From: Escherichia coli
Lineage (GTDB): Bacteria; Pseudomonadota; Gammaproteobacteria; Enterobacterales; Enterobacteriaceae
NCBI RefSeq assembly: GCF_003334765.1
Contig: NZ_QOWT01000002.1
Length of the DNA stretch: 64,000 bases
Reading direction: 5' to 3' (one strand)
Shown here: one piece after another, positions 23,004-60,983 of the stretch
How positions within the stretch are numbered: position 1 is the stretch's first letter
Layout of the letters: each line of letters opens with the position of its first letter
Translations under genes and position numbers: made by a program
The notes under the pieces: generated by a model
Told to the model about the DNA's origin: nothing
The model's database searches: none
The model's input: only the letters and a program-made list of their open reading frames with translations

Positions 23004-23090
23004 GGCGATCTTTATTCCTTGTAAAAGTCCCGTCAGGACCGGATTTTCAACGAATTCTCACGACAGAAAATTCTCTTCGGACTGGGGGTA

Positions 23091-23129
23091 GTGTCGGATG
23101 CACCGCGAAGGCGGCTTATCCGACCTACG
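23091..23129. repeat. REP (repetitive extragenic palindromic) element in the nuoM-nuoL intergenic gap
   Basis: Imperfect palindrome GTGTCGGATGCACCGCGAAGGCGGCTTATCCGACCTACG resembling the E. coli REP consensus. Confidence 0.7.
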
Positions 23130-23166
23130 TTCTTATATGCCCAGGGGCAATCCCACAATCCTTAAC

Positions 23167-25008
23167 TCAACGCAGTACCATCAACAGTGCCAGCACCACG
23201 ACCGCACCGATGCTCATGGATGCCACATACCAGCGCAGATAGCCGTTCTCACTTAACAGCAGACCTTTACCTGCAAAGCGGGAAAGGACAGCCGGGATGT
23301 TCATCATTGAGTTCAGCGGATCGCGTTTCAGCAACCAGGCAATACCCAGGAACGGCTTGACGAACACTTTGTCATACAGCCAGTCAAATCCCCAGGCGTT
23401 GTACCACCAGGTGCCCAGCAGACGGCCCGGCGCACTGTTGGCGATGGAGGTCACCAGAGTACGTTTACCCAGCCACAGCCAGGCTGCCAGCAGAATGCCG
23501 ACCACCGCGACCACGCCAGAGGTAATTTCCAGGGTCAACATGCTGCCGTGCGCCAGTTCCGTCGTTTGCGGAAGCACGCCCTGCAGCGGCGGTACAATCA
23601 GTGCGCCAACGAAGGTGGAAAGGATCAGCAGCACAATCAGCGGCAGGCTGTGAGTTACCCCTTTCACGGCGTGAGCGTGAATTTGTTCTTTTCCGTGGAA
23701 GACGATGAAAATCATACGGAAGGTGTAGAGCGAGGTCATAAACGCACCGACCAGACCTGCCACCATCAGATTGATATGACCATTCGCCATCGCACCCGCG
23801 AGGATCTCATCCTTACTGAAGAAGCCCGCAGTGACCAGCGGTAGTGCCGACAGTGCTGCGCCGCCCACCAGGAAGCAGAGATAAACCAGCGGAATAGATT
23901 TACGCAGACCGCCCATCTTGAAGATGTTCTGTTCGTGATGGCAGGCCAGAATGACGGAACCGGATGCCAGGAACAGCAGCGCTTTAAAGAACGCGTGGGT
24001 CATCAAGTGGAAAATCGCCGCATCCCATGCCTGCACGCCAAGCGCGAGGAACATGTAGCCAATCTGGCTCATGGTAGAGTAAGCGAGAACACGTTTGATG
24101 TCGGTCTGTACCAGCGCGGCAAAACCGGCCAGCAGCAGCGTAACCGCCCCGACAATACCCACCAGATGCAGAACTTCCGGCGTCATCAGGAACAGGCCGT
24201 GGGTACGGGCGATCAGGTAGACACCCGCGGTTACCATGGTTGCGGCGTGGATCAGCGCGGAGACAGGCGTCGGGCCCGCCATCGCGTCGGCAAGCCATGT
24301 CTGCAACGGCAACTGCGCAGATTTACCGACCGCACCGCCCAGCAGCATCAGCGTCGCCCACATCAGCATGTTATTGCCGTCAGCAAAGTGCGCTGGTGCC
24401 AGTTCCACCATTTCGCGGAAGTTCAGGGTGCCCAGTTCGTTGTAAAGAATGAACAGTGCGAAAGCGAGGAACACGTCACCCACACGGGTCACGACGAACG
24501 CTTTCATTGCCGCTGCGCCATTCTTCGGATCGGTGTAATAGAACCCGATCAGCAGATAGGAGCACAGGCCCACGCCTTCCCAGCCGAGGTACATCAGCAG
24601 CAGGTTGTCGGCAAGCACCAGAACCACCATGCTGGCGATGAACAGGTTGGTGTAAGCGAAGAAGCGAGAGTAGCCCTCTTCACCGCGCATATACCAGGAG
24701 GCGTACATGTGAATAAGGAAACCCACACCAGTGACCACCGAGAGCATGGTCAGCGACAGGCCGTCCAGCACCAGGTTAAAACCGATGTTAAAGTCGCCTA
24801 CCGACATCCACGTCCACAGCGGCTGGCTGTATGTCTGCTCGCCGTTAGCGAAGAAATCAACGCCGATAAAGGCGGTTACCAGCGCCGCCAGGCCCACAGA
24901 GCCTACGCCGACGATCGCCGAGACGTTTTCAGACCAGCGCCCACGGGAGAATGCCAGCAGGACGAAGCCAATCAATGGCAAAATAATGGTTAAGGCAAGC
25001 ATGTTCAT
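23167..25008 (-). CDS. nuoL: NADH:quinone oxidoreductase subunit L (antiporter-like)
   Basis: 613-aa membrane protein; start overlaps nuoK stop by 4 nt. Confidence 0.96.
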
Positions 25009-25307
25009 CCGCGCATCTCACTTACTGAATCGATGTTCAGGTTCTGGCGACGACGGTGAAGTTGCAGCAGCAGCGCAAGGCCGATACTCGCTTCTGCCGC
25101 CGCGAGGCTGATGGCGAGAATGTACATCACCTGACCGTCGGTCTGGCCCCAGTAGCTTCCGGCGACCACGAAGGCCAGCGCGGAGGCGTTAATCATGATT
25201 TCCAGACCAATCAACATAAACAGCAGATTGCGACGGATAACCAGACCGGTTAAGCCAAGAACGAATAAGATTGCCGCGAGGATCAGTCCATGTTGTAAGG
25301 GGATCAT
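25005..25307 (-). CDS. nuoK: NADH:quinone oxidoreductase subunit K
   Basis: 100-aa membrane protein; overlaps nuoL and nuoJ by 4 nt each. Confidence 0.95.
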
Positions 25308-25858
25308 GCGTGCTCCTCCGTTTTTCTTTTCGCGCTGTCGTCTTTACGATTGCTCAGCACTTCACCCGCACGCTCTTCACGACCGACGTGGAAGGCCACA
25401 ACCAGACCTGCGAGCAGCAGCATAGAAGCCAGTTCCACCGCCAGTACGTAAGGCCCGAACAGCGTAATACCCACTGCTTTAGCACTGATTGGCGTACCGT
25501 CGATACCCTGATCGTTAACACCGAGGATGGCGTAAACAATCACCACCAGCATGATGGCCGACAAAATTGCCGGACCAATCCACACCTGCGGTTTCAGCCA
25601 CTGGCGTTCCTGTTCGATTTCTGAACCGCCCAGGTTGAGCATCATCACCACGAACACGAACAGCACCATAATGGCACCCGCGTAGACGATAATTTCCAGC
25701 GCACCGGCGAAGTAAGCGCCCAGTGAGAAGAACACCCCGGAAATCGCCAGCAGCGAAATAATCAGGTACAGCAGTGCGTGTACCGGATTGGTATGGGTGA
25801 TCACTCGCAAGGTCGCAAGTATGGCTATCAGGCCACAGATATAAAAAGCGAACTCCAT
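25304..25858 (-). CDS. nuoJ: NADH:quinone oxidoreductase subunit J
   Basis: 184-aa membrane protein; operon context. Confidence 0.95.
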
Positions 25859-25869
25859 TGCCCCTCTCC

Positions 25870-26412
25870 TTACGGTAACAGGCTCTTGACGTCGATAGGC
25901 TTGGCTTCGTTCTCTGCTTCGCCCTTATCTTTGCCGTCGATTGCCATACCTGCCATCCGGTAGAAGTTATATTCCGGGTATTTGCCCGGACCGGAGATCA
26001 GCAGATCCTCTTTCTCGTAAACCAGATCCTGGCGCTTGTATTCCCCCATTTCGAAATCCGGGGTTAACTGAATCGCCGTGGTCGGACAGGCTTCTTCGCA
26101 CAGACCACAGAAAATGCAGCGTGAGAAGTTGATGCGGAAAAATTCCGGGTACCAGCGACCGTCTTTGGTTTCTGCTTTTTGCAGCGAGATACAGCCGACC
26201 GGGCAGGCTACCGCGCAGAGGTTACAGGCTACGCAACGCTCTTCGCCGTCCGGGTCGCGGGTCAGAACGATACGACCACGATAACGGGGCGGCAGATAGA
26301 CCGGCTCTTCCGGGTACATTCGCGTTTCGCGTTTGGCGAACGCGTGCAGGCCGATCATCCAGATACTACGAACCTGGGTGCCGAAACCTACTAACAATTC
26401 TTTTAAGGTCAT
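25870..26412 (-). CDS. nuoI: NADH:quinone oxidoreductase subunit I (2x[4Fe-4S] ferredoxin)
   Basis: 180-aa ORF with two Cys clusters CxxCxxCxxxCP ([12 protein letters not shown] and [12 protein letters not shown]). Confidence 0.96.
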
Positions 26413-26426
26413 GGTCTTATTGCCCC

Positions 26427-27404
26427 TTATTGCGCCTGCCAGAGAATGACAGCCGCCGTTACCAGCAAGTTGATCAGCGTCAGCGGCAGGCAGATTTTCC
26501 AGCCGAAGGACATTACCTGGTCATAACGCGGACGCGGTAACGACGCACGAATCAAAATGAACATCATCATAAAGAACGCGGTTTTCAGCGCGAACCAGAT
26601 GAATGGCGGTAACAACGGGCCTTGCCAGCCACCGAAGAACAGCGTCACCATCAATGCAGAGATGGTCACAATCCCGATGTACTCACCCACGAAGAACAGA
26701 CCGAACTTCATACCGGAATATTCAATGTGGTAACCATCCGCCAGTTCCTGCTCGGCTTCCGGCTGGTCAAACGGGTGACGGTGACATACCGCCACGCCCG
26801 CGATGGCAAAGGTAATAAAACCAAAGAATTGCGGGATAACGTTCCACACATGCGCCTGGCTGTTGACGATGTCGGTCATGTTGAATGAACCGGCCTGCGC
26901 CACCACGCCCATCAAGGAAAGCCCGAGGAACACTTCGTAGCTCAGGGTCTGCGCAGAAGCACGCATCGCACCCAGCAACGAGTATTTGTTGTTACTTGAC
27001 CAGCCCGCAAACAGCACCGCGTAAACCGCCAGACCTGCCATCATCAGGAAGAACAAAATCCCGATGTTCAGGTCGGCAACCACCCAACCCGGACTGACTG
27101 GCACAATCGCAAAGGCCAGCAGCAGCGAGGTAAAGGCAATCATCGGTGCCAGGGTAAAGATGACGCGATCCGAGAATTTCGGGATCCAGTCTTCTTTAAA
27201 GAACATTTTGATCATGTCCGCAACCAGCTGGAGCGAACCGCCCCAGCCAACACGGTTAGGTCCGTAACGGTTCTGGAACAGACCCAGCAGGCGACGTTCG
27301 CCAAAGCTCATGAATGCCCCGCAGGTGACAACCACCAGCAGGATCACCACCGCTTTGAGGATGGTCAGCAGGATCTCAATCAGTTCCGGTGATATCCAAC
27401 TCAT
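26427..27404 (-). CDS. nuoH: NADH:quinone oxidoreductase subunit H
   Basis: 325-aa membrane protein; start overlaps nuoG stop by 4 nt. Confidence 0.96.
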
Positions 27405-30127
27405 TGTTGTGCCTCCTTGAGATCCTCAAGATGCGCGCCAGCCAGCACCGGAGCAATGCCGGACATACCCATCGGCAAGCCCACCTGCCCTGCCGTCAGT
27501 CCTTCGGCGATTTCAACCGGCAGCGTGACCGTGTTGCCATCGTAACTAAAGGAGACGCGTGTACCTGCGTTCACACCCAACTTCGCGGCATCCGCTGGGT
27601 TGAGTTTGATGTACGGCTGCGGCATACGGCTCTGGAAGACCGGAGCACGCTGTGACAATTCATCGCTGCCAAACAGGTGGTAATACGGCGCGATACGCCA
27701 TTTCCCGTCCTGCGGCTGGAAGCGTGCCGGTACGCTGGTGAAGTAATCCAGACCATTTTCGCTGGTTTCAAACAGACGCACGCCCGGATCGCCAAAGCGC
27801 AGTTTGCCGCCCACTTCGTCCTGGAATTTGTTCCACGCCTGCGGGGAGTTCCAGCCCGGCGCCCAGGCAAACGGCACTTGCGAACGGTGCGCAGTCGGCT
27901 GGTTGTTACCTTCCATCGAGAAGGTGAACATGGTGTCAATATCCTGCGGCTGACGCGGCTCATGAACGCTGATATTGGCGCGCATGGCGGTACGACCGCT
28001 GTAACGGTGCGGTTCACGGGCCAGTTTCTGCCCACGAATACGGAATGTCGCATCCGGCGCAGCATCTTTGATACCTGCCAGTTCCGGGATTTTCGCCACA
28101 ACAGCGTCAATCACATGGTCGAGCTGCGTCCAGTCCACTTCACGGCTCAGCAGGGTGCTGTGCAGCGAGTGTAACCAGCGCCAGCTTTCCAGCATGACAG
28201 TTTTGCTGTCGTAATAAGCAGGATCGTAAACCTGGAAGAAACGTTGGGCGCGGCCTTCGTTGTTGATCACCGTACCGTCGCTTTCAGCAAAGCTGGCAGC
28301 AGAAAGTACCAGATGGGCGTTTTCCATAATCGCTGTGCGTTGATGATCAACCACCATCACCAGCGGTGCTTTAGCCAGCGCAGCATTCACGCGGATAGCA
28401 GAAGCGTGACGATGCAGATCGTTTTCCAACACCACCACCGCGTCGGCGCGTCCGGTTTCCAGTTCGGTTAACGCTTCTTCAAGCGAACCGCCACCCATAA
28501 TGCCCAGCCCCATGCTGTTGACGGAACGGGCAATCATGGTGATACCGACGTCAGCGCCGCGACCTTTCAGGGCTTTCGCGACGTTAGCCGCCGCCTGAAT
28601 CACCTCTAAGCTACCGGCGTTCGTCCCGGAGATAATCAACGGTTTCTTCGCACCTGCCAGTGCCTGCACGATGACGTCGATTTTGCTTTGCAGCTCAGGT
28701 TCGATACCGTCAACCGCTGGTGCAGAGTTATCCAGCGCATGGGCGATGGCAAAACCTAAACGCGCCTGATCTTCAACCGGTGCGCGGTAAGTCCACGCCG
28801 CGATATCATCCAGACGGGTGTCATCAACGTTGGTAACAAACAGCGGATGCTTCGCACGTTGACCGATGTTGAGGATTGCCGCAATCTGCCAGTCAGCCAC
28901 TTTCTGTGCTGCCGCCATTTCGCGCGCTTTACCTTTCACAGCCTGACGCACTGCCAGCGCGACGCGCGCGCCGGTCTGGGTAACGTCTTCGCCCAGCACC
29001 AGTACCGCATCGTAAGATTCGATTTCGCGCAGAGCCGGAGTATAAATGCCGCCTTCACGCAGCACTTTCAGCGCCAGTTGCAGACGTTCCTGCTCACCGT
29101 GAGCGATACCGGTGTAGAAGTTTTCTTCGCCCACCAGTTCACGCAGCGCAAAGTTGCTTTCCACGCTGGCACGCGGAGAACCAATACCGATCACTTTCTT
29201 CGACTGACGCAGAATATCTGCCGCGCCCTGCATTGCCTGTTCGGCGTTGAGGGTAATGAAATCATCGCCACGACGCTGTACTGGCTGACGCGGACGATCC
29301 TTCAGGTTGACGTAACCGTAACCGAAACGACCACGGTCGCAGAGGAAGTAGTGGTTTACCGTACCGTTGTAACGGTTTTCGATACGACGCAGTTCGCCGT
29401 AACGTTCACCGGGGCTGATGTTACAGCCGATGGAACATTGCTGGCAGATGCTCGGCGCAAACTGCATATCCCATTTACGGTTGTAACGCTCGGAGTGCGT
29501 TTTGTCGGTAAATACGCCGGTCGGGCAAATTTCGACCAGGTTACCGGAAAATTCGCTTTCCAGCGTGCCGTCTTCCGGGCGACCGAAGTAGACGTTGTCG
29601 TGCGCACCGTAAACGCCCAGATCTGTACCGTCAGCGTAATCTTTGTAGTAACGCACACAGCGGTAGCAGGCGATGCAGCGGTTCATTTCGTGAGAGATGA
29701 ATGGCCCCAAATCCTGATTACGGTGGGTACGTTTGGTGAAACGGTAGCGACGGAAGCTGTGTCCGGTCATCACAGTCATATCCTGAAGATGGCAGTTACC
29801 GCCCTCTTCACATACCGGACAGTCGTGCGGGTGGTTGGTCATCAACCACTCGACCACGCTTTCACGGAACTGTTTCGCTTCTTCGTCGTCAATGGAAATA
29901 AAGGTGCCATCGGAAGCCGGTGTCATACAGGACATCACCAGGCGACCACGCGTGTCTTCCGCGTTTTGGTATTGCTTCACCGCACACTGGCGGCAAGCAC
30001 CGACACTTCCCAGCGCCGGATGCCAGCAAAAGTAAGGAATATCAAGGCCCAGAGACAGACAAGCTTCCAGCAGGTTGTCCGCTCCGTTGACCTCGTATTC
30101 TTTGCCGTCTACATGAATTGTAGCCAT
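27401..30127 (-). CDS. nuoG: NADH:quinone oxidoreductase subunit G (Fe-S, molybdopterin-like fold)
   Basis: 908-aa protein starting MATIHVDG with N-terminal 2Fe-2S Cys cluster; ORF track has two extra N-terminal codons (start 30133). Confidence 0.95.
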
Positions 30128-30179
30128 TAGCATGCTTCCAGTTTTCTCAGTCAGAGACTGAGCGTTAATCGAAATTCGG

Positions 30180-31517
30180 TTACCAGCGCTCTTTCAGCAG
30201 GTTCGGCTGAATCCCATTAATCAAATGGGTATTGCTGAACGGCTGTTTGATTCCCGCCTCAAATTCTTCGCGGAAATATTTGATGGCGCTCTGTAACGGC
30301 TCCACTGCACCAGGTGCGTGGGCACAGAAAGTTTTACCCGGGCCTAAGAATCGACACAGTTGCTCAAGTGTTTCGATATCGCCCGGCTGACCTTCACCAC
30401 GCTCCAGCGCACGCAGAATTTTCACGCTCCACGGCAGACCGTCGCGGCACGGCGTACACCAGCCGCAGGACTCACGGGCGAAAAACTCTTCCAGGTTACG
30501 CACCAGCGACACCATGTTGATCTCATGGTCAACCGCCATCGCCAGCGCCGTACCCAGACGGCTGCCCGCTTTACCGATACTTTCGAATTCCATCGGCAGA
30601 TCAAGGTGCGCTTCGGTCAGGAAGTCAGTCCCCGCGCCGCCTGGCTGCCAGGCTTTAAATTTCAGACCATCACGCATACCACCGGCGTAATCTTCGAGGA
30701 TCTCGCGTGCGGTGGTGCCGAACGGCAGTTCCCACAGTCCCGGATTTTTCACCCGACCGGAGAAGCCCATCAGCTTGGTGCCAGCATCTTTACTTTTCGA
30801 GATGTTCTGATACCACTCCACGCCGTTAGCGAGGATCGCCGGAACGTTACACAGGGTTTCGACGTTGTTGACACAGGTCGGTTTACCCCATGCGCCGGAG
30901 GTTGCCGGGAAGGGTGGCTTCGAGCGTGGGTTAGCACGACGTCCTTCCAGGGAGTTGATTAACGCTGTTTCTTCCCCGCAGATGTAGCGCCCTGCCCCGG
31001 TATGGACGAACAGTTCGAAATCGAAACCTGTTCCCATAATGTTTTTGCCAAGCAGACCCGCTTCGGTGGCTTCGGCAATGGCACGGCGCAGATTAACTGC
31101 CGCTTCGATATATTCGCCACGCAGGAAGATGTAGCCACGGTAAGCTTTCAGCGCAAACGCGGAGATGAGCATACCTTCCACCAGCAGGTGCGGCAGTTGC
31201 TCCATCAACAGGCGGTCTTTATAGGTGCCCGGCTCCATTTCATCGGCATTACACAGCAGGTAACGGATGTTCATGGATTCGTCTTTCGGCATCAGGCTCC
31301 ATTTCAGGCCAGTCGAGAAGCCCGCGCCGCCGCGCCCTTTCAGACCAGCGTCTTTTACCTGATTAACGATTTCGTCCGGAGACAGCCCGGTCAGCGCCTT
31401 ACGCGCGCCTTCGTAACCGTTTTTGCTGCGGTATTCGTCCAGCCACACTGGCTGTTTGTCATCGCGCAGACGCCAGGTCAGCGGATGCGTTTCGGGAGTA
31501 CGGATAATGTTTTTCAT
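30180..31517 (-). CDS. nuoF: NADH:quinone oxidoreductase subunit F (NADH/FMN binding, 4Fe-4S)
   Basis: 445-aa ORF with nucleotide-binding motif [19 protein letters not shown] and C-terminal Cys cluster; overlaps nuoE start by 4 nt. Confidence 0.96.
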
Positions 31518-32014
31518 TTATACCGCTCCAGCAGTTCAGGGATCGCTTCCGGGGTCAGATGCGCGTGAGTGTCCTCATCGATCATCATGTTTGGCCCTTT
31601 ATCACAGTTCCCCAGGCAGCAAGTTGGCAGCAGCGTAAAGCGGCCATCAAATGTCGTTTGCCCTGGTTTGATGTTCAGCTTTTTCTCGAGCGCCGCCTGA
31701 ATACCCTGATAACCGTTGATATGACAGACCACGCTGTCACAATAACGGATCACATGGCGACCAACCGGCTGGCGGAAGATCTGACTGTAGAACGTTGCCA
31801 CACCTTCGACGTCGCTTGCCGGAATACCCAGCACATCGGCGATCGCGTGGATCGCACCATCCGGCACCCAGCCACGCTGCTTCTGAACGATTTTCAGCGC
31901 TTCAATGGACGCCGCACGCGGGTCTTCGTAGTGGTGCATCTCGTGCTCGATCGCTTCACGCTCTGCCGCACTCAGCTCAAAAGCCTCGGTTTGTGGTTGT
32001 TGATTCTCGTGCAT
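31514..32014 (-). CDS. nuoE: NADH:quinone oxidoreductase subunit E (2Fe-2S)
   Basis: 166-aa ORF with Cys motif CDSVVC...[10 protein letters not shown]. Confidence 0.96.
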
Positions 32015-32016
32015 AA

Positions 32017-33819
32017 TTAGCGGTCCACATCTGACATAACAAAATCGATACTGCCCAGATAAACAATCAGGTCAGACACCAGGCTGCCGCGGATCGCCGC
32101 CGGAATTTGCTGCAAATGCGCAAAGCTCGGGGTACGAACACGGGTGCGGTAACTCATGGTGCTGCCGTCGCTGGTCAGGTAGTAACTGTTGATCCCTTTG
32201 GTCGCCTCAATCATCTGGAAAGATTCATTGGCAGGCATCACCGGACCCCACGACACTTGCAGGAAGTGGGTGATCAGGGTTTCGATATGTTGCAGCGTGC
32301 GCTCTTTCGGCGGCGGCGTGGTCAGCGGGTGATCCGCTTTGAACGGGCCTTCCGGCATGTTGTTGAGGCACTGCTCAAGAATGCGCAGACTCTGGCGCAG
32401 CTCTTCCACTTTAAGCATTACGCGGGTGTAGCAGTCAGAAACGCCACCACCCACCGGGATTTCAAAGTCGAAGTTTTCATAGCCAGAATAAGGACGCGCC
32501 TTACGCACGTCGAAGTCGATCCCGGTAGCACGCAGGCCCGCGCCAGTGGTGCCCCACTCCAGCGCCTCTTTCGCGCCATAGGCGGCAACGCCCTGGGAAC
32601 GACCTTTCAGAATGGTGTTTTGCAGCGCCGCTTTCTCGTAAGACGCCAGACGTTTCGGCATCCAGTCGAGGAACTCACGCAGCAGGCGATCCCAGCCGCG
32701 CGGCAGGTCGTGCGCTACGCCGCCAATACGGAACCACGCCGGGTGCATACGGAAACCAGTGATTGCTTCCACCAGATCGTAAATTTTCTGACGATCGGTA
32801 AAGGCGAAGAACACTGGCGTCATTGCGCCGACGTCCTGAATAAAGGTCGAGATATACAGCAGGTGACTGTTGATGCGGAACAGTTCGGAGAGCATAACGC
32901 GAATGACGTTAACGCGATCCGGCACGGTGATCCCGGCCAGTTTCTCTACCGCCAGCACGTAAGGCATTTCGTTAACGCAGCCGCCGAGGTATTCGATACG
33001 GTCAGTATACGGAATGTAGCTGTGCCAGGACTGGCGTTCGCCCATTTTCTCCGCACCACGGTGGTGGTAACCGATGTCTGGTACGCAGTCGACAATCTCT
33101 TCGCCATCGAGTTGCAAAACGATACGGAAAGCCCCGTGCGCCGACGGGTGGTTCGGACCGAGGTTGAGGAACATGAAGTCCTCGTTTTCGGTGCCGCGCT
33201 TCATCCCCCACTCTTCCGGTTTGAAGGTCAGGGCTTCCATCTCCAGATCCTGTTTGGCTTTGGTCAGCTCAAACGGCGAGAATTCGGTAGCGCGCGCCGG
33301 ATAATCTTTACGCAGCGGGTGACCTTTCCAGGTTTGCGGCATCATGATGCGTCGCAGGTTCGGGTGACCGTCGAAAGTAATGCCAAACAGATCCCAGGTT
33401 TCACGCTCATACCAGTTAGCGTTCGGGAACAGTTTGGTGAAGGTCGGTACGTGCAGGTCGTTTTCTGCCAGCGCCACCTTCAGCATGATGTCGCGGTTAC
33501 GATCGATAGAAATCAGATGGTAGAAAACGGAAAAATCCGCGGCAGGTAACCCTTCGCGGTGTGTGCGCAGACGTTCGTCCATGCCGTGTAAGTCAAACAG
33601 CATGACGTAAGGTTTCGGCAGTTTCTTTAAGAAATCGCCAACTTCCAGTAATTGTTCACGCTTGATCCACACAACGGGAACCCCGGTGCGAGTCGCCTGA
33701 ACAGTAAAGGCATCCGGCCCAAAACGGTTGCGCAGTTCGCCAATCACCGGATCATCAAGATGATCGCGGGTCTGCCAGGCGGGTTCTTGCGCGGTTAAGT
33801 CGGTCATATTGTTCACCAT
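32017..33819 (-). CDS. nuoC: NADH:quinone oxidoreductase fused subunit C/D
   Basis: 600-aa maximal ORF spanning both NuoC-like and NuoD-like halves; annotated start may be the ATG four codons downstream (33807). Confidence 0.93.
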
Positions 33820-33912
33820 TGCAAATGGTCCGTGGTGACTGTCGGCGCAGTAAGCTTCGCGAAATAGATTTAGGAATAAGCGAAGAAAAATCCCTTTGCC
33901 GACAGGCGCAAA

Positions 33913-34575
33913 TTAAATCTCGTCAGGTGTACGCAGGTTAGTTACGGCAATGCGTTCACCGCGCTTGCGTTCGCGCTCTGATTGCATATTGGCGCGATAA
34001 ACGCCCTGATCGCCAACCACCCAGGAGAGCGGACGACGTTCTTTGCCGATAGATTCCTGCAACAGCATCAGTGCCTGCATGTACGCTTCAGGACGCGGCG
34101 GGCAGCCCGGGATATACACATCAACCGGGATGAATTTATCGACGCCCTGCACAACGGAATAAATATCGTACATACCACCAGAGTTGGCACAGGCACCCAT
34201 TGAGATAACCCATTTTGGTTCCAGCATCTGGTCATACAGACGCTGAATAACCGGTGCCATTTTGGTAAAGCAGGTTCCTGCAACCACCATCAGGTCAGCC
34301 TGACGCGGCGAAGCACGCAATACTTCTGCGCCAAAACGCGCCACGTCATGCACCGCGGTAAACGAAGTCACCATCTCAACGTAACAGCAGGAAAGACCGA
34401 AGTTATACGGCCAAATTGAGTTTTTACGACCCCAGTTAACCATGTCATTGAGCTTGCCCATAAACACGTTTTTGTTAACTTCTTGCTCCAGAGGGTCGGT
34501 TACGATCTCCTGCTTTTGCAGGGGGTAACGGTCGTTCTCACCGTTGGGATCTATGCGGGTGAGCGTATAATCCAT
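33913..34575 (-). CDS. nuoB: NADH:quinone oxidoreductase subunit B (4Fe-4S N2)
   Basis: 220-aa ORF with CCYVEM and GCPP motifs. Confidence 0.96.
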
Positions 34576-34590
34576 CTTAATGCCTCGCGG

Positions 34591-35034
34591 TTAGCGTTGA
34601 CGATTAGCGATACTGTTCGTTTCCGGGTTCATACGCTCGCGGCGTGAACGCGCGGGCGTCCAGTCCAGCGCGCCAATACGCACCAGATAAACCAGACCTG
34701 CCAGTAACACAAAAATAAAAATTGCAGCTTCCACAAAGCCTACCCAGCCGCTTTCGCGGATAGAGGTTGACCATGCGAACAGATACAGCGCTTCAACGTC
34801 GAAGATAACGAAGAACATGGCCACCAGATAAAACTTGGCGGACAGGCGTAAGCGGGCGGAGCCGACCGAGTCGATACCGGATTCAAACGGCACGTTTTTC
34901 GACCTCGCGCGTGCGCGACCGCCTAAAAACCAACCGCCTACCAGCATCAGGCAACACAGGCCAATGGCAACGATAAGAAAGATAGCGAATGCCCAGTGAT
35001 GAGCGATGACTTCAGTGGATGTTGACATACTCAT
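34591..35034 (-). CDS. nuoA: NADH:quinone oxidoreductase subunit A
   Basis: 147-aa membrane protein; first gene of the operon, preceded by a 630-bp intergenic region. Confidence 0.95.
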
Positions 35035-35580
35035 TGCTTACTCATCAAAAGTAGCGCCAGATTCACTGCTCTTCACGGCAGATGGACGCCACATCGATTC
35101 ATGGGGAGGAATAAAAAAAACCTTACAATCACTGTAGAAATTCTTTTATACAGCTAATTGATGTGGTTTTTTACTCCTTTCTATAACCTTTTGTCAACTT
35201 TAACAAAAGTTTCTTCACATTAGTTTACATAATATCAACACCATTAGCATTTAATGCCCTTTCACCCCAGATCCTTGACGACTCCAGGATAATTAGATGT
35301 TGTTGAATCGTGTCCGTTGTGAAGCAATGGAAAAAATACGGGTCTATTTTGACAGGAATTTGTGTCGATTCCTCCCCCCAAAAGAGAGTATTTTCTTGAT
35401 CTGTGACACGCTTTTGTCATTCCATAACAAAAACGCAGCAACAAATTTACGTATTTTTTAACATCATTGTAGCAGGTGATTTTTTTCAGGCGATTATTTG
35501 TGCGTTCGGGACGTGAATCTCTGGTGGTTGAAAAATGAACAGTTTTGTACGTTCTGCACTATGCGATGAAGGATTTTTAC
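35035..35580 (-). promoter_or_regulatory. nuo operon promoter/leader region
   Basis: AT-rich intergenic region upstream of nuoA; individual sites not resolved by eye (a weak TTGACA-like -35 near 35192-35197 on the minus strand). Confidence 0.45.
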
Positions 35581-35581
35581 T

Positions 35582-35628
35582 AAAAAAAAGCCGCTGGGGT
35601 TTAAAACACCCCCAGCGGCTCGTTTTTT
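35582..35628. terminator. Bidirectional intrinsic terminator downstream of lrhA
   Basis: 11-bp stem AGCCGCTGGGG/CCCCAGCGGCT flanked by A8 upstream and T6 downstream, so it is U-tailed on both strands. Confidence 0.75.
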
Positions 35629-35664
35629 ACACTATTGTCTCAGGAATTATCTATCGTCCGTCGA

Positions 35665-36606
<942 letters not shown>

Positions 36607-55878: not shown

Positions 55879-55967
55879 GCTGCCTGTCCTGTCGTGTGTG
55901 GTGAATTACCGCCTCTTGTCTCCCTCCGGTTACCCGAAGGGAGCGGGCTTTCTTTCACCGATGGCGA

Positions 55968-60890: not shown

Positions 60891-60974
60891 GTCGGATGCG
60901 GCGTAAACGCCTTATCCGACCTACGGTTCTACCCCTGCGTAGGCCTGATAAGACGCGCCAGCGTCGCATCAGGC
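60891..60974. repeat. BIME (two inverted REP elements) between cvpA and dedD
   Basis: GTCGGATGCGGCGTAAACGCCTTATCCGACCTACG followed by GTAGGCCTGATAAGACGCGCCAGCGTCGCATCAGGC. Confidence 0.8.
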
Positions 60975-60983
60975 AAGACCGTA

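Follow-up and report, generated by a model that had tools for sequence, protein, structure and literature searches.

The REP element between nuoL and nuoM of Escherichia coli is probably a tolerated insertion in an older spacer

The nuo operon and the nuoL-nuoM spacer

The nuo operon lies on the minus strand of the window (the whole 64-kb stretch of Escherichia coli DNA that was analysed), where its open reading frames run from nuoA (34591-35034) to nuoN (20010-21467). The window is collinear with E. coli K-12 MG1655, a window position being the K-12 position minus 2370038, and its nuoL-nuoM stretch is identical to that of MG1655. Both nuoL (23167-25008) and nuoM (21474-23003) are minus-strand reading frames; the sequence places the TGA stop codon of nuoL at 23169-23167 and the ATG start codon of nuoM at 23003-23001, and therefore the minus-strand intercistronic spacer (23004-23166), which was characterised from the ORF ends, the sequence and the fold, is exactly 163 bp long. 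This is the largest junction of the nuo operon. Taking the longest ORFs, the remaining gaps are of 15 bp (A-B), 93 bp (B-C), 2 bp (C-E), 46 bp (F-G), 14 bp (H-I), 11 bp (I-J) and 6 bp (M-N), and the E-F, G-H, J-K and K-L junctions overlap, the J, K and L cistrons being joined via 4-nt overlaps. A first-pass annotation of this DNA had described a 163-bp gap with a REP palindrome between nuoL and nuoM, and its coordinates proved to be exact, with a canonical E. coli REP present. It had also stated that every other junction overlaps or is shorter than 100 bp, which is slightly too strong because the nuoB-nuoC junction (33820-33912), although 93 bp by the longest ORF, becomes 105 bp when measured to the nuoC start annotated in K-12; the others do overlap or are short, and the idea of one large intercistronic gap stands, as the nuoL-nuoM spacer is clearly the largest in spite of this. 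The nuoB-nuoC spacer is the second-largest in the operon.

The whole 163-nt spacer folds with a predicted energy of -57.9 kcal/mol (z = -3.5). A scan of 23004-23166 for sites resembling promoters or terminators, the latter on both strands, came back empty, and an internal promoter or intrinsic terminator in the gap was rejected on the strength of this; a G+C-rich hairpin leading into a run of U is lacking, and ACACUACCCCC comes after the REP. Small ORFs inside the gap were also without support. A covariance-model search against Rfam 15 found no family in the gap, and the sole match in 19500-36000 was the nuoG RNA motif (RF01748) in the nuoF-nuoG spacer (30135-30177, minus strand; 50.3 bits against a gathering threshold of 33, E = 3e-08).

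The REP element

An imperfect palindrome with arms at 23093-23106 and 23111-23124 occupies 23093-23124 on the minus strand, and was recognised by these inverted-repeat arms, by its fold and by its belonging to a multi-copy family. A GTAG tetranucleotide (23125-23128, minus strand) abuts it 5' on the mRNA strand, where the element reads GTAG-GTCGGAT-AA-GCCGC-CTTC-GCGGT-GC-ATCCGAC, with CTTC as the loop. The predicted hairpin is very stable (-20.9 kcal/mol, z = -4.3, with none of 200 shuffled sequences as stable) and, in both the MFE and the centroid fold, AA (23117-23116) is left unpaired opposite GC (23101-23100). REPs have been defined as palindromes of 20-50 nt with a conserved GTAG at their 5' side, and the E. 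coli types as imperfect palindromes with a conserved AA/GC mismatch (PMC8266576). At 23093-23128 there is such a 20-50-nt imperfect palindrome, with GTAG abutting the stem and the AA/GC mismatch within it; it is extragenic, no part of it reaching into nuoL or nuoM, and it has many dispersed copies per genome. A 46-nt REP query matched all 5426 complete E. coli genomes, in a median of 24 places per genome, and the genomes matched include those that lack the nuo copy. Within the window the pattern GGATGC...CTTATCC occurs twice against 0.02 expected occurrences, and the 14-mer CTTATCCGACCTAC of the nuoL-nuoM REP recurs at 60911. The palindrome at 23093-23124 is a genuine REP, not a chance palindrome, and is an ordinary copy of an already known kind of element.

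Across the 64-kb window REP patterns were found only here and in an inverted pair, BIME-like in arrangement, between cvpA and dedD (60891-60975). The left copy of that pair (60891-60924) has the same 7-bp outer stem, AA/GC bulge and GTAG as the nuoL-nuoM REP but differs from it in the inner stem and loop (GGCG-TTTA-CGCC as against GCCGC-CTTC-GCGGT). Few repeats of E. coli K-12 are as well catalogued as REPs. The copy of RefSeq NC_000913.3 used for comparison lists no repeat_region feature in the 64-kb stretch, not even for the obvious pair at 60891-60975, and therefore the missing annotation of a REP there says nothing. A literature search on repeats at the nuoL-nuoM junction gave nothing specific and no experiment on this REP, and PMC4448311 names nuo only as the operon downstream of a different region.

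The REP module in the upstream half of the gap

The gap is composite, with an upstream REP module of about 85 nt followed by about 76 nt of older spacer. The upstream half (about 23075-23166) is absent from the 76-nt spacers of relatives and aligns positionally with the REP modules of K. oxytoca, Citrobacter R56 and NCU1, P. vulneris and Superficieibacter. In the predicted fold the module is enclosed by an outer inverted repeat on the minus strand, of which the 5' arm GGATTGTGGG (23152-23161) begins 5 nt beyond the nuoL stop codon and the 3' arm CCCCCAGTC (23079-23087) is seen in both fold and alignment; CTAC (23088-23091, minus strand) pairs with the GTAG, which is itself separated by 38 nt (23128 to 23167) from the nuoL stop. 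The fold of the module (23075-23162) is predicted at -42.4 kcal/mol (z = -5.2), and the same outer arms flank the REP module in K. oxytoca, Citrobacter R56 and Superficieibacter.

Alignment A6 also points to a putative vestigial inverted REP partner, TGCCCCTGGGCATA (23136-23149, minus strand), which aligns with the 3' end of the left REP in relatives, has lost its CTAC and folds as a small 4-bp hairpin. Two intact inverted REPs with a short linker, the mark of a BIME or REPIN, are not found here as the left partner is a stump of ~14 nt, and hence the element is a solo REP and not a complete BIME. From the alignment and fold we infer that the module is a decayed BIME/REPIN in which one REP is intact, its inverted partner is vestigial and an outer stem of 9-10 bp closes the whole.

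The older spacer in front of nuoM

The older spacer of ~76 nt starts, by comparison with relatives and in alignment A3, at the conserved motif GAATTCGTTGAAAATC (23042-23057, minus strand). In full, GAATTCGTTGAAAATC is followed by a small G+C-rich hairpin and then by the Shine-Dalgarno region of nuoM, and the E. coli counterpart lies at 23001-23057. The motif is present with at most 2 mismatches in 23 of the 79 species compared and is nearly invariant in alignment A3, in which the Shine-Dalgarno sequence AAGGA (23016-23020, minus strand; 12 nt before the ATG at 23001-23003) is invariant. Just upstream of this ribosome-binding site is the small conserved hairpin GGTCCT GAC GGGACT (23026-23040, minus strand), which is supported by covariation. 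Its 7-bp helix is paired in 96.4% of cells of the 12-sequence alignment A3, from which Pantoea was left out (a MAFFT alignment that included Pantoea misaligned the hairpin); 3 of the 7 pairs vary on both sides among these 12 sequences, slid registers are far worse, and RNAalifold predicted the same hairpin independently. In E. coli alone the hairpin is weak (-6.3 kcal/mol, z = -1.15). RNAalifold also gives an AUUC/GAAU helix overlapping the nuoM Shine-Dalgarno, the columns of which are invariant and show no covariation, and GA|AUU in the core (23057-23053) fits the RNase E motif RN|WUU.

A covariance model built on the small hairpin has 17 strong loci, among them its single match in the window, at 23001-23056. 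The core (23001-23057) is conserved across Enterobacteriaceae (loci L006-L051) and may have a regulatory role in front of nuoM. A metagenome scan with the 16-mer GAATTCGTTGAAAATC gave mostly chance matches, only 2 of 80 loci being real matches to the spacer model, and so the covariation test stays at 12 sequences.

The junction in E. coli strains and other Enterobacterales

The junction was compared in 79 species-representative Enterobacterales genomes and in 5426 complete E. coli genomes. Among the 79 species the nuoL-nuoM spacer ranges from 24 to 289 bp (median 146). A 76-nt spacer without the REP module is found in Enterobacter (including E. cloacae), Atlantibacter, some Citrobacter and others, and is apparently, by alignment, the empty site for the module. 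A GTAG-hairpin is present at the junction in 10 of the 79 species, the other 69 having no REP, and K. oxytoca, Citrobacter R56 and NCU1 and P. vulneris carry REPs of their own species type at the same position, single or as inverted pairs (the pairs being intact in Citrobacter R56 and P. vulneris). An ERIC-like palindromic element of ~125 nt, apparently inserted next to the conserved hairpin, occupies the junction in 23 of the 79 species, from Salmonella and Citrobacter to Pantoea and Erwinia (loci L007, L010, L012, L031, L053, L085 and others), canonical ERIC is found there in 3 Serratia, and other species have unique hairpins. An Rfam scan of 11 related loci found no family in the gaps, the ERIC-like element included. 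Spacers are significantly structured (z < -2) in 58 of the 79 species by way of unrelated sequences (REP, ERIC-like, unique hairpins), and 8 species have a spacer of 45 nt or less without structure. A second copy of the ERIC-like element, 84% identical over 91 nt, is located between the pheM leader and pheS in many E. coli (L087, 701-792).

Within E. coli the junction is polymorphic. The 163-bp REP allele is carried by 4699 of the 5426 genomes, all 4699 of which have kept the REP without deletion, and in one variant of it (L006) two stem positions have changed with pairing kept through G-U/G-C. Such retention and a pairing-preserving variant are compatible with some constraint. An unrelated 230-bp spacer with the ERIC-like element is found in 724 genomes (13%), including O157:H7 and E2348/69. 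Over this allele (L002 400-629, L003, L007 971-1200) and the 50 nt of nuoM that follow it, identity to Salmonella enterica subsp. arizonae CCUG 6322T is 100%, falling to 82-88% in the flanks, so that it looks like a short patch of interspecies recombination. A mosaic spacer was seen in E. coli O157:H7 TR01 (L086), with the first 41 nt and the last ~45 nt of the REP allele around an ERIC-like middle from the 230-bp allele; it is a genuine recombinant or else an artefact of assembly. The spacers compared here mark the nuoL-nuoM junction as a hot spot for palindromic repeats of different kinds, which have inserted or been exchanged there, also across species.

Expression across the REP

Published ribosome density and mRNA values (Burkhardt et al. 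2017, eLife 6:e22037, Supplementary file 1) are 97.9 and 378 for nuoH, 92.6 and 369 for nuoJ, 115.9 and 319 for nuoK, 88.6 and 336.5 for nuoL, 92.4 and 264.5 for nuoM, and 97.8 and 273.9 for nuoN, with translation efficiencies of 0.263 for nuoL, 0.349 for nuoM, 0.259 for nuoH and 0.251 for nuoJ. The nuoM/nuoL ratio from these values is 0.79 for mRNA and 1.04 for ribosome density, and is to be read as coming from single published growth conditions, with ribosome profiling being imprecise for membrane proteins and a step of ~20% not being zero. Steps just as large occur in the mRNA at junctions that have no REP (0.76 from nuoG to nuoH and 0.78 from nuoH to nuoI), and the mRNA declines gradually along the whole operon, such that there is no large expression step at the REP. 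nuo was among the 390 operons analysed for differential decay by Dar and Sorek (2018, Table S2), and nuoK, nuoL, nuoM and nuoN have no entry in their tables of differentially decaying operons.

The first-pass annotation had proposed that the REP sets a differential stoichiometry of the distal membrane subunits. This is not supported: ribosome density is equal on nuoL, nuoM and nuoN, the mRNA step is no larger than at REP-free junctions and nuoK-N have no entry although the operon had been analysed for differential decay; the REP also lies 38 nt past the stop and is absent from 13% of E. coli and from most relatives. Equal levels on the two sides of the REP had been named as the outcome that would speak against the proposal, and this is largely what the published values give, with translation equal but mRNA at 0.79. 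Nor do these published data have the malEFG pattern, in which the upstream part is clearly more abundant or stable and protein output is unequal. Complex I contains one copy of each Nuo subunit, and therefore there is no differential stoichiometry to explain.

Discussion

The account of the junction that we favour is that an older nuoL-nuoM spacer of ~76 nt would have received a REP module of ~85 nt directly after the nuoL stop codon, and that the gap is large because the repeat was inserted there. On the nuo mRNA the module is predicted to fold into a very stable hairpin. Such a hairpin, as is established for REPs, can slow exonucleases that work 3' to 5', and the nuoA-L portion of the transcript could gain slightly from this. 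nuoM has a ribosome-binding site of its own, 89 nt downstream of the REP, from which it is translated. The junction may be unusually permissive for palindromic insertions, so that a selfish or neutral repeat is tolerated in it. With an mRNA step of ~20% at most, and the same ribosome density on nuoL, nuoM and nuoN, the repeat is most likely a selfish or neutral one that is tolerated, and its effect on subunit amounts is most likely near-neutral. We consider it probable that the REP module is a passenger of this kind and not a stoichiometry device, its hairpin acting as, at most, a slight barrier to exonucleases.

If the REP instead stabilised mRNA as in malE-malF, 3' exonucleases acting after an endonucleolytic cut or a termination event downstream would halt at the hairpin, and nuoA-L would outlive nuoMN, perhaps in some conditions only. 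The great stability of the hairpin (-20.9 kcal/mol, or -42.4 kcal/mol once the outer stem is included), the resistance of REPs to exonucleases and their stabilisation of upstream mRNA (PMC6061677, PMC5927463), the nuoM mRNA level 21% below that of nuoL and the presence of some stable hairpin right after nuoL in many genera all fit this, but the step is matched at the REP-free G to H and H to I junctions, ribosome density is equal on either side, the differential-decay tables have no nuoK-N entry, the subunits of complex I are needed 1:1, and the REP is missing in 13% of E. coli genomes, which makes a stabiliser fairly unlikely. A DNA-level or transcriptional role of the BIME kind, by which the element would be a candidate gyrase or IHF site or would bring about Rho-dependent attenuation before nuoMN, would agree with the slight fall in mRNA after the REP and with the functions described for BIMEs generally (in the parts of the literature cited in PMC8266576 and PMC6061677). 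Such a role is nevertheless very doubtful for a single intact REP, which is not a complete BIME, in a gap where a terminator-like site was not found and in an operon whose mRNA declines gradually throughout.

Two further alternatives concern translation. By analogy with a "ribosome termination structure", the hairpin might evict terminating ribosomes and so uncouple nuoM initiation from nuoL translation; the outer stem does begin at 23161, 5 nt after the stop ending at 23167, stable structures just past stop codons have been reported to control re-initiation and insulation (PMC7518266), and nuoM has its own Shine-Dalgarno and a higher translation efficiency than nuoL (0.349 against 0.263). A distance of 163 nt, however, already prevents coupling by itself, and species with unstructured spacers of 24-41 nt do without a hairpin, so that an insulator seems distinctly improbable. 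The REP might also down-regulate the gene upstream, ribosomes ending nuoL being stalled and NuoL lost in a tmRNA-dependent manner (the Liang-Rudd-Deutscher mechanism). The efficiency of nuoL is one of the lowest in the operon and the outer stem of the module falls within 15 nt of the stop, but nuoH and nuoJ are equally low without such a structure, and the REP itself, at 38 nt past the stop, is well beyond the distance of less than 16 nt at which alone, in the account of Liang et al. (2015) cited in PMC12306157, a translational effect is reported. We therefore regard down-regulation of nuoL as highly improbable.

The recurrence of structured spacers in the comparison could be a sign that a stable hairpin after nuoL is selected for, and not simply that the site is permissive. 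It is unlikely that the Enterobacterales junction is selected for such a hairpin and that 23026-23057 is an undescribed cis-regulatory element for nuoMN processing or translation; if this were so, REPs, ERIC-like elements and lineage-specific hairpins would be interchangeable upstream stem-loops punctuating a 15-kb mRNA. On the reading that we prefer, that of a tolerated passenger, the stoichiometry idea can be dropped on existing data, and this REP copy is of little consequence, having no measurable effect on subunit balance. The hot-spot junction is also a convenient natural series in which intercistronic REP and ERIC hairpins can be tested on the mRNA of a long respiratory operon, and the analysis has yielded as by-products the conserved core hairpin and motif before nuoM, the dimorphic spacer with its Salmonella-identical patch and the ERIC-like occupancy of the junction.

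Among known systems, the E. coli REP or palindromic unit family has y, z1 and z2 types, is arranged in BIMEs and REPINs and is mobilised by TnpA_REP/RAYT. The nuo element resembles this family in having GTAG directly 5' of an imperfect palindrome of ~32 nt, in its AA/GC bulge, and in being extragenic and multi-copy, but differs in that it is solo, its partner being a stump, and is embedded in an extra outer stem of 9-10 bp. ERIC/IRU elements are likewise transcribed palindromes in intercistronic spacers and occupy the same junction in many relatives and in 13% of E. coli, but their sequence of ~125 nt is unrelated and absent from the window. The REPs that reduce upstream translation, as far as the work of Liang, Rudd and Deutscher (2015) is represented in the source that cites it, are like the nuo REP in lying downstream of a stop on the same transcript, but they lie 15 nt or less from it and the nuo REP, at 38 nt, is outside this effective range. 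A predicted likeness also exists to the ribosome termination structure (Chemla et al. 2020), a stable mRNA structure a few nt past a stop inside an operon, which is a statistical and functional category and not a sequence family. With the REPs of malE-malF and of Salmonella hisJ-hisQ the nuo REP shares its position as an intercistronic hairpin inside a polycistronic mRNA; those are mRNA stabilisers, with unequal amounts of product needed and clear differential decay, whereas the nuo products are 1:1, the ribosome densities are equal and the operon is not flagged as differentially decaying. The hisJ-hisQ spacer is a classical REP site in Salmonella. In the window the GTAG-type REP is absent from the hisJ-hisQ spacer (55879-55967, minus strand) and a different hairpin (CTCCCTTCGGGTAACCGGAGGGAG) is present in it.
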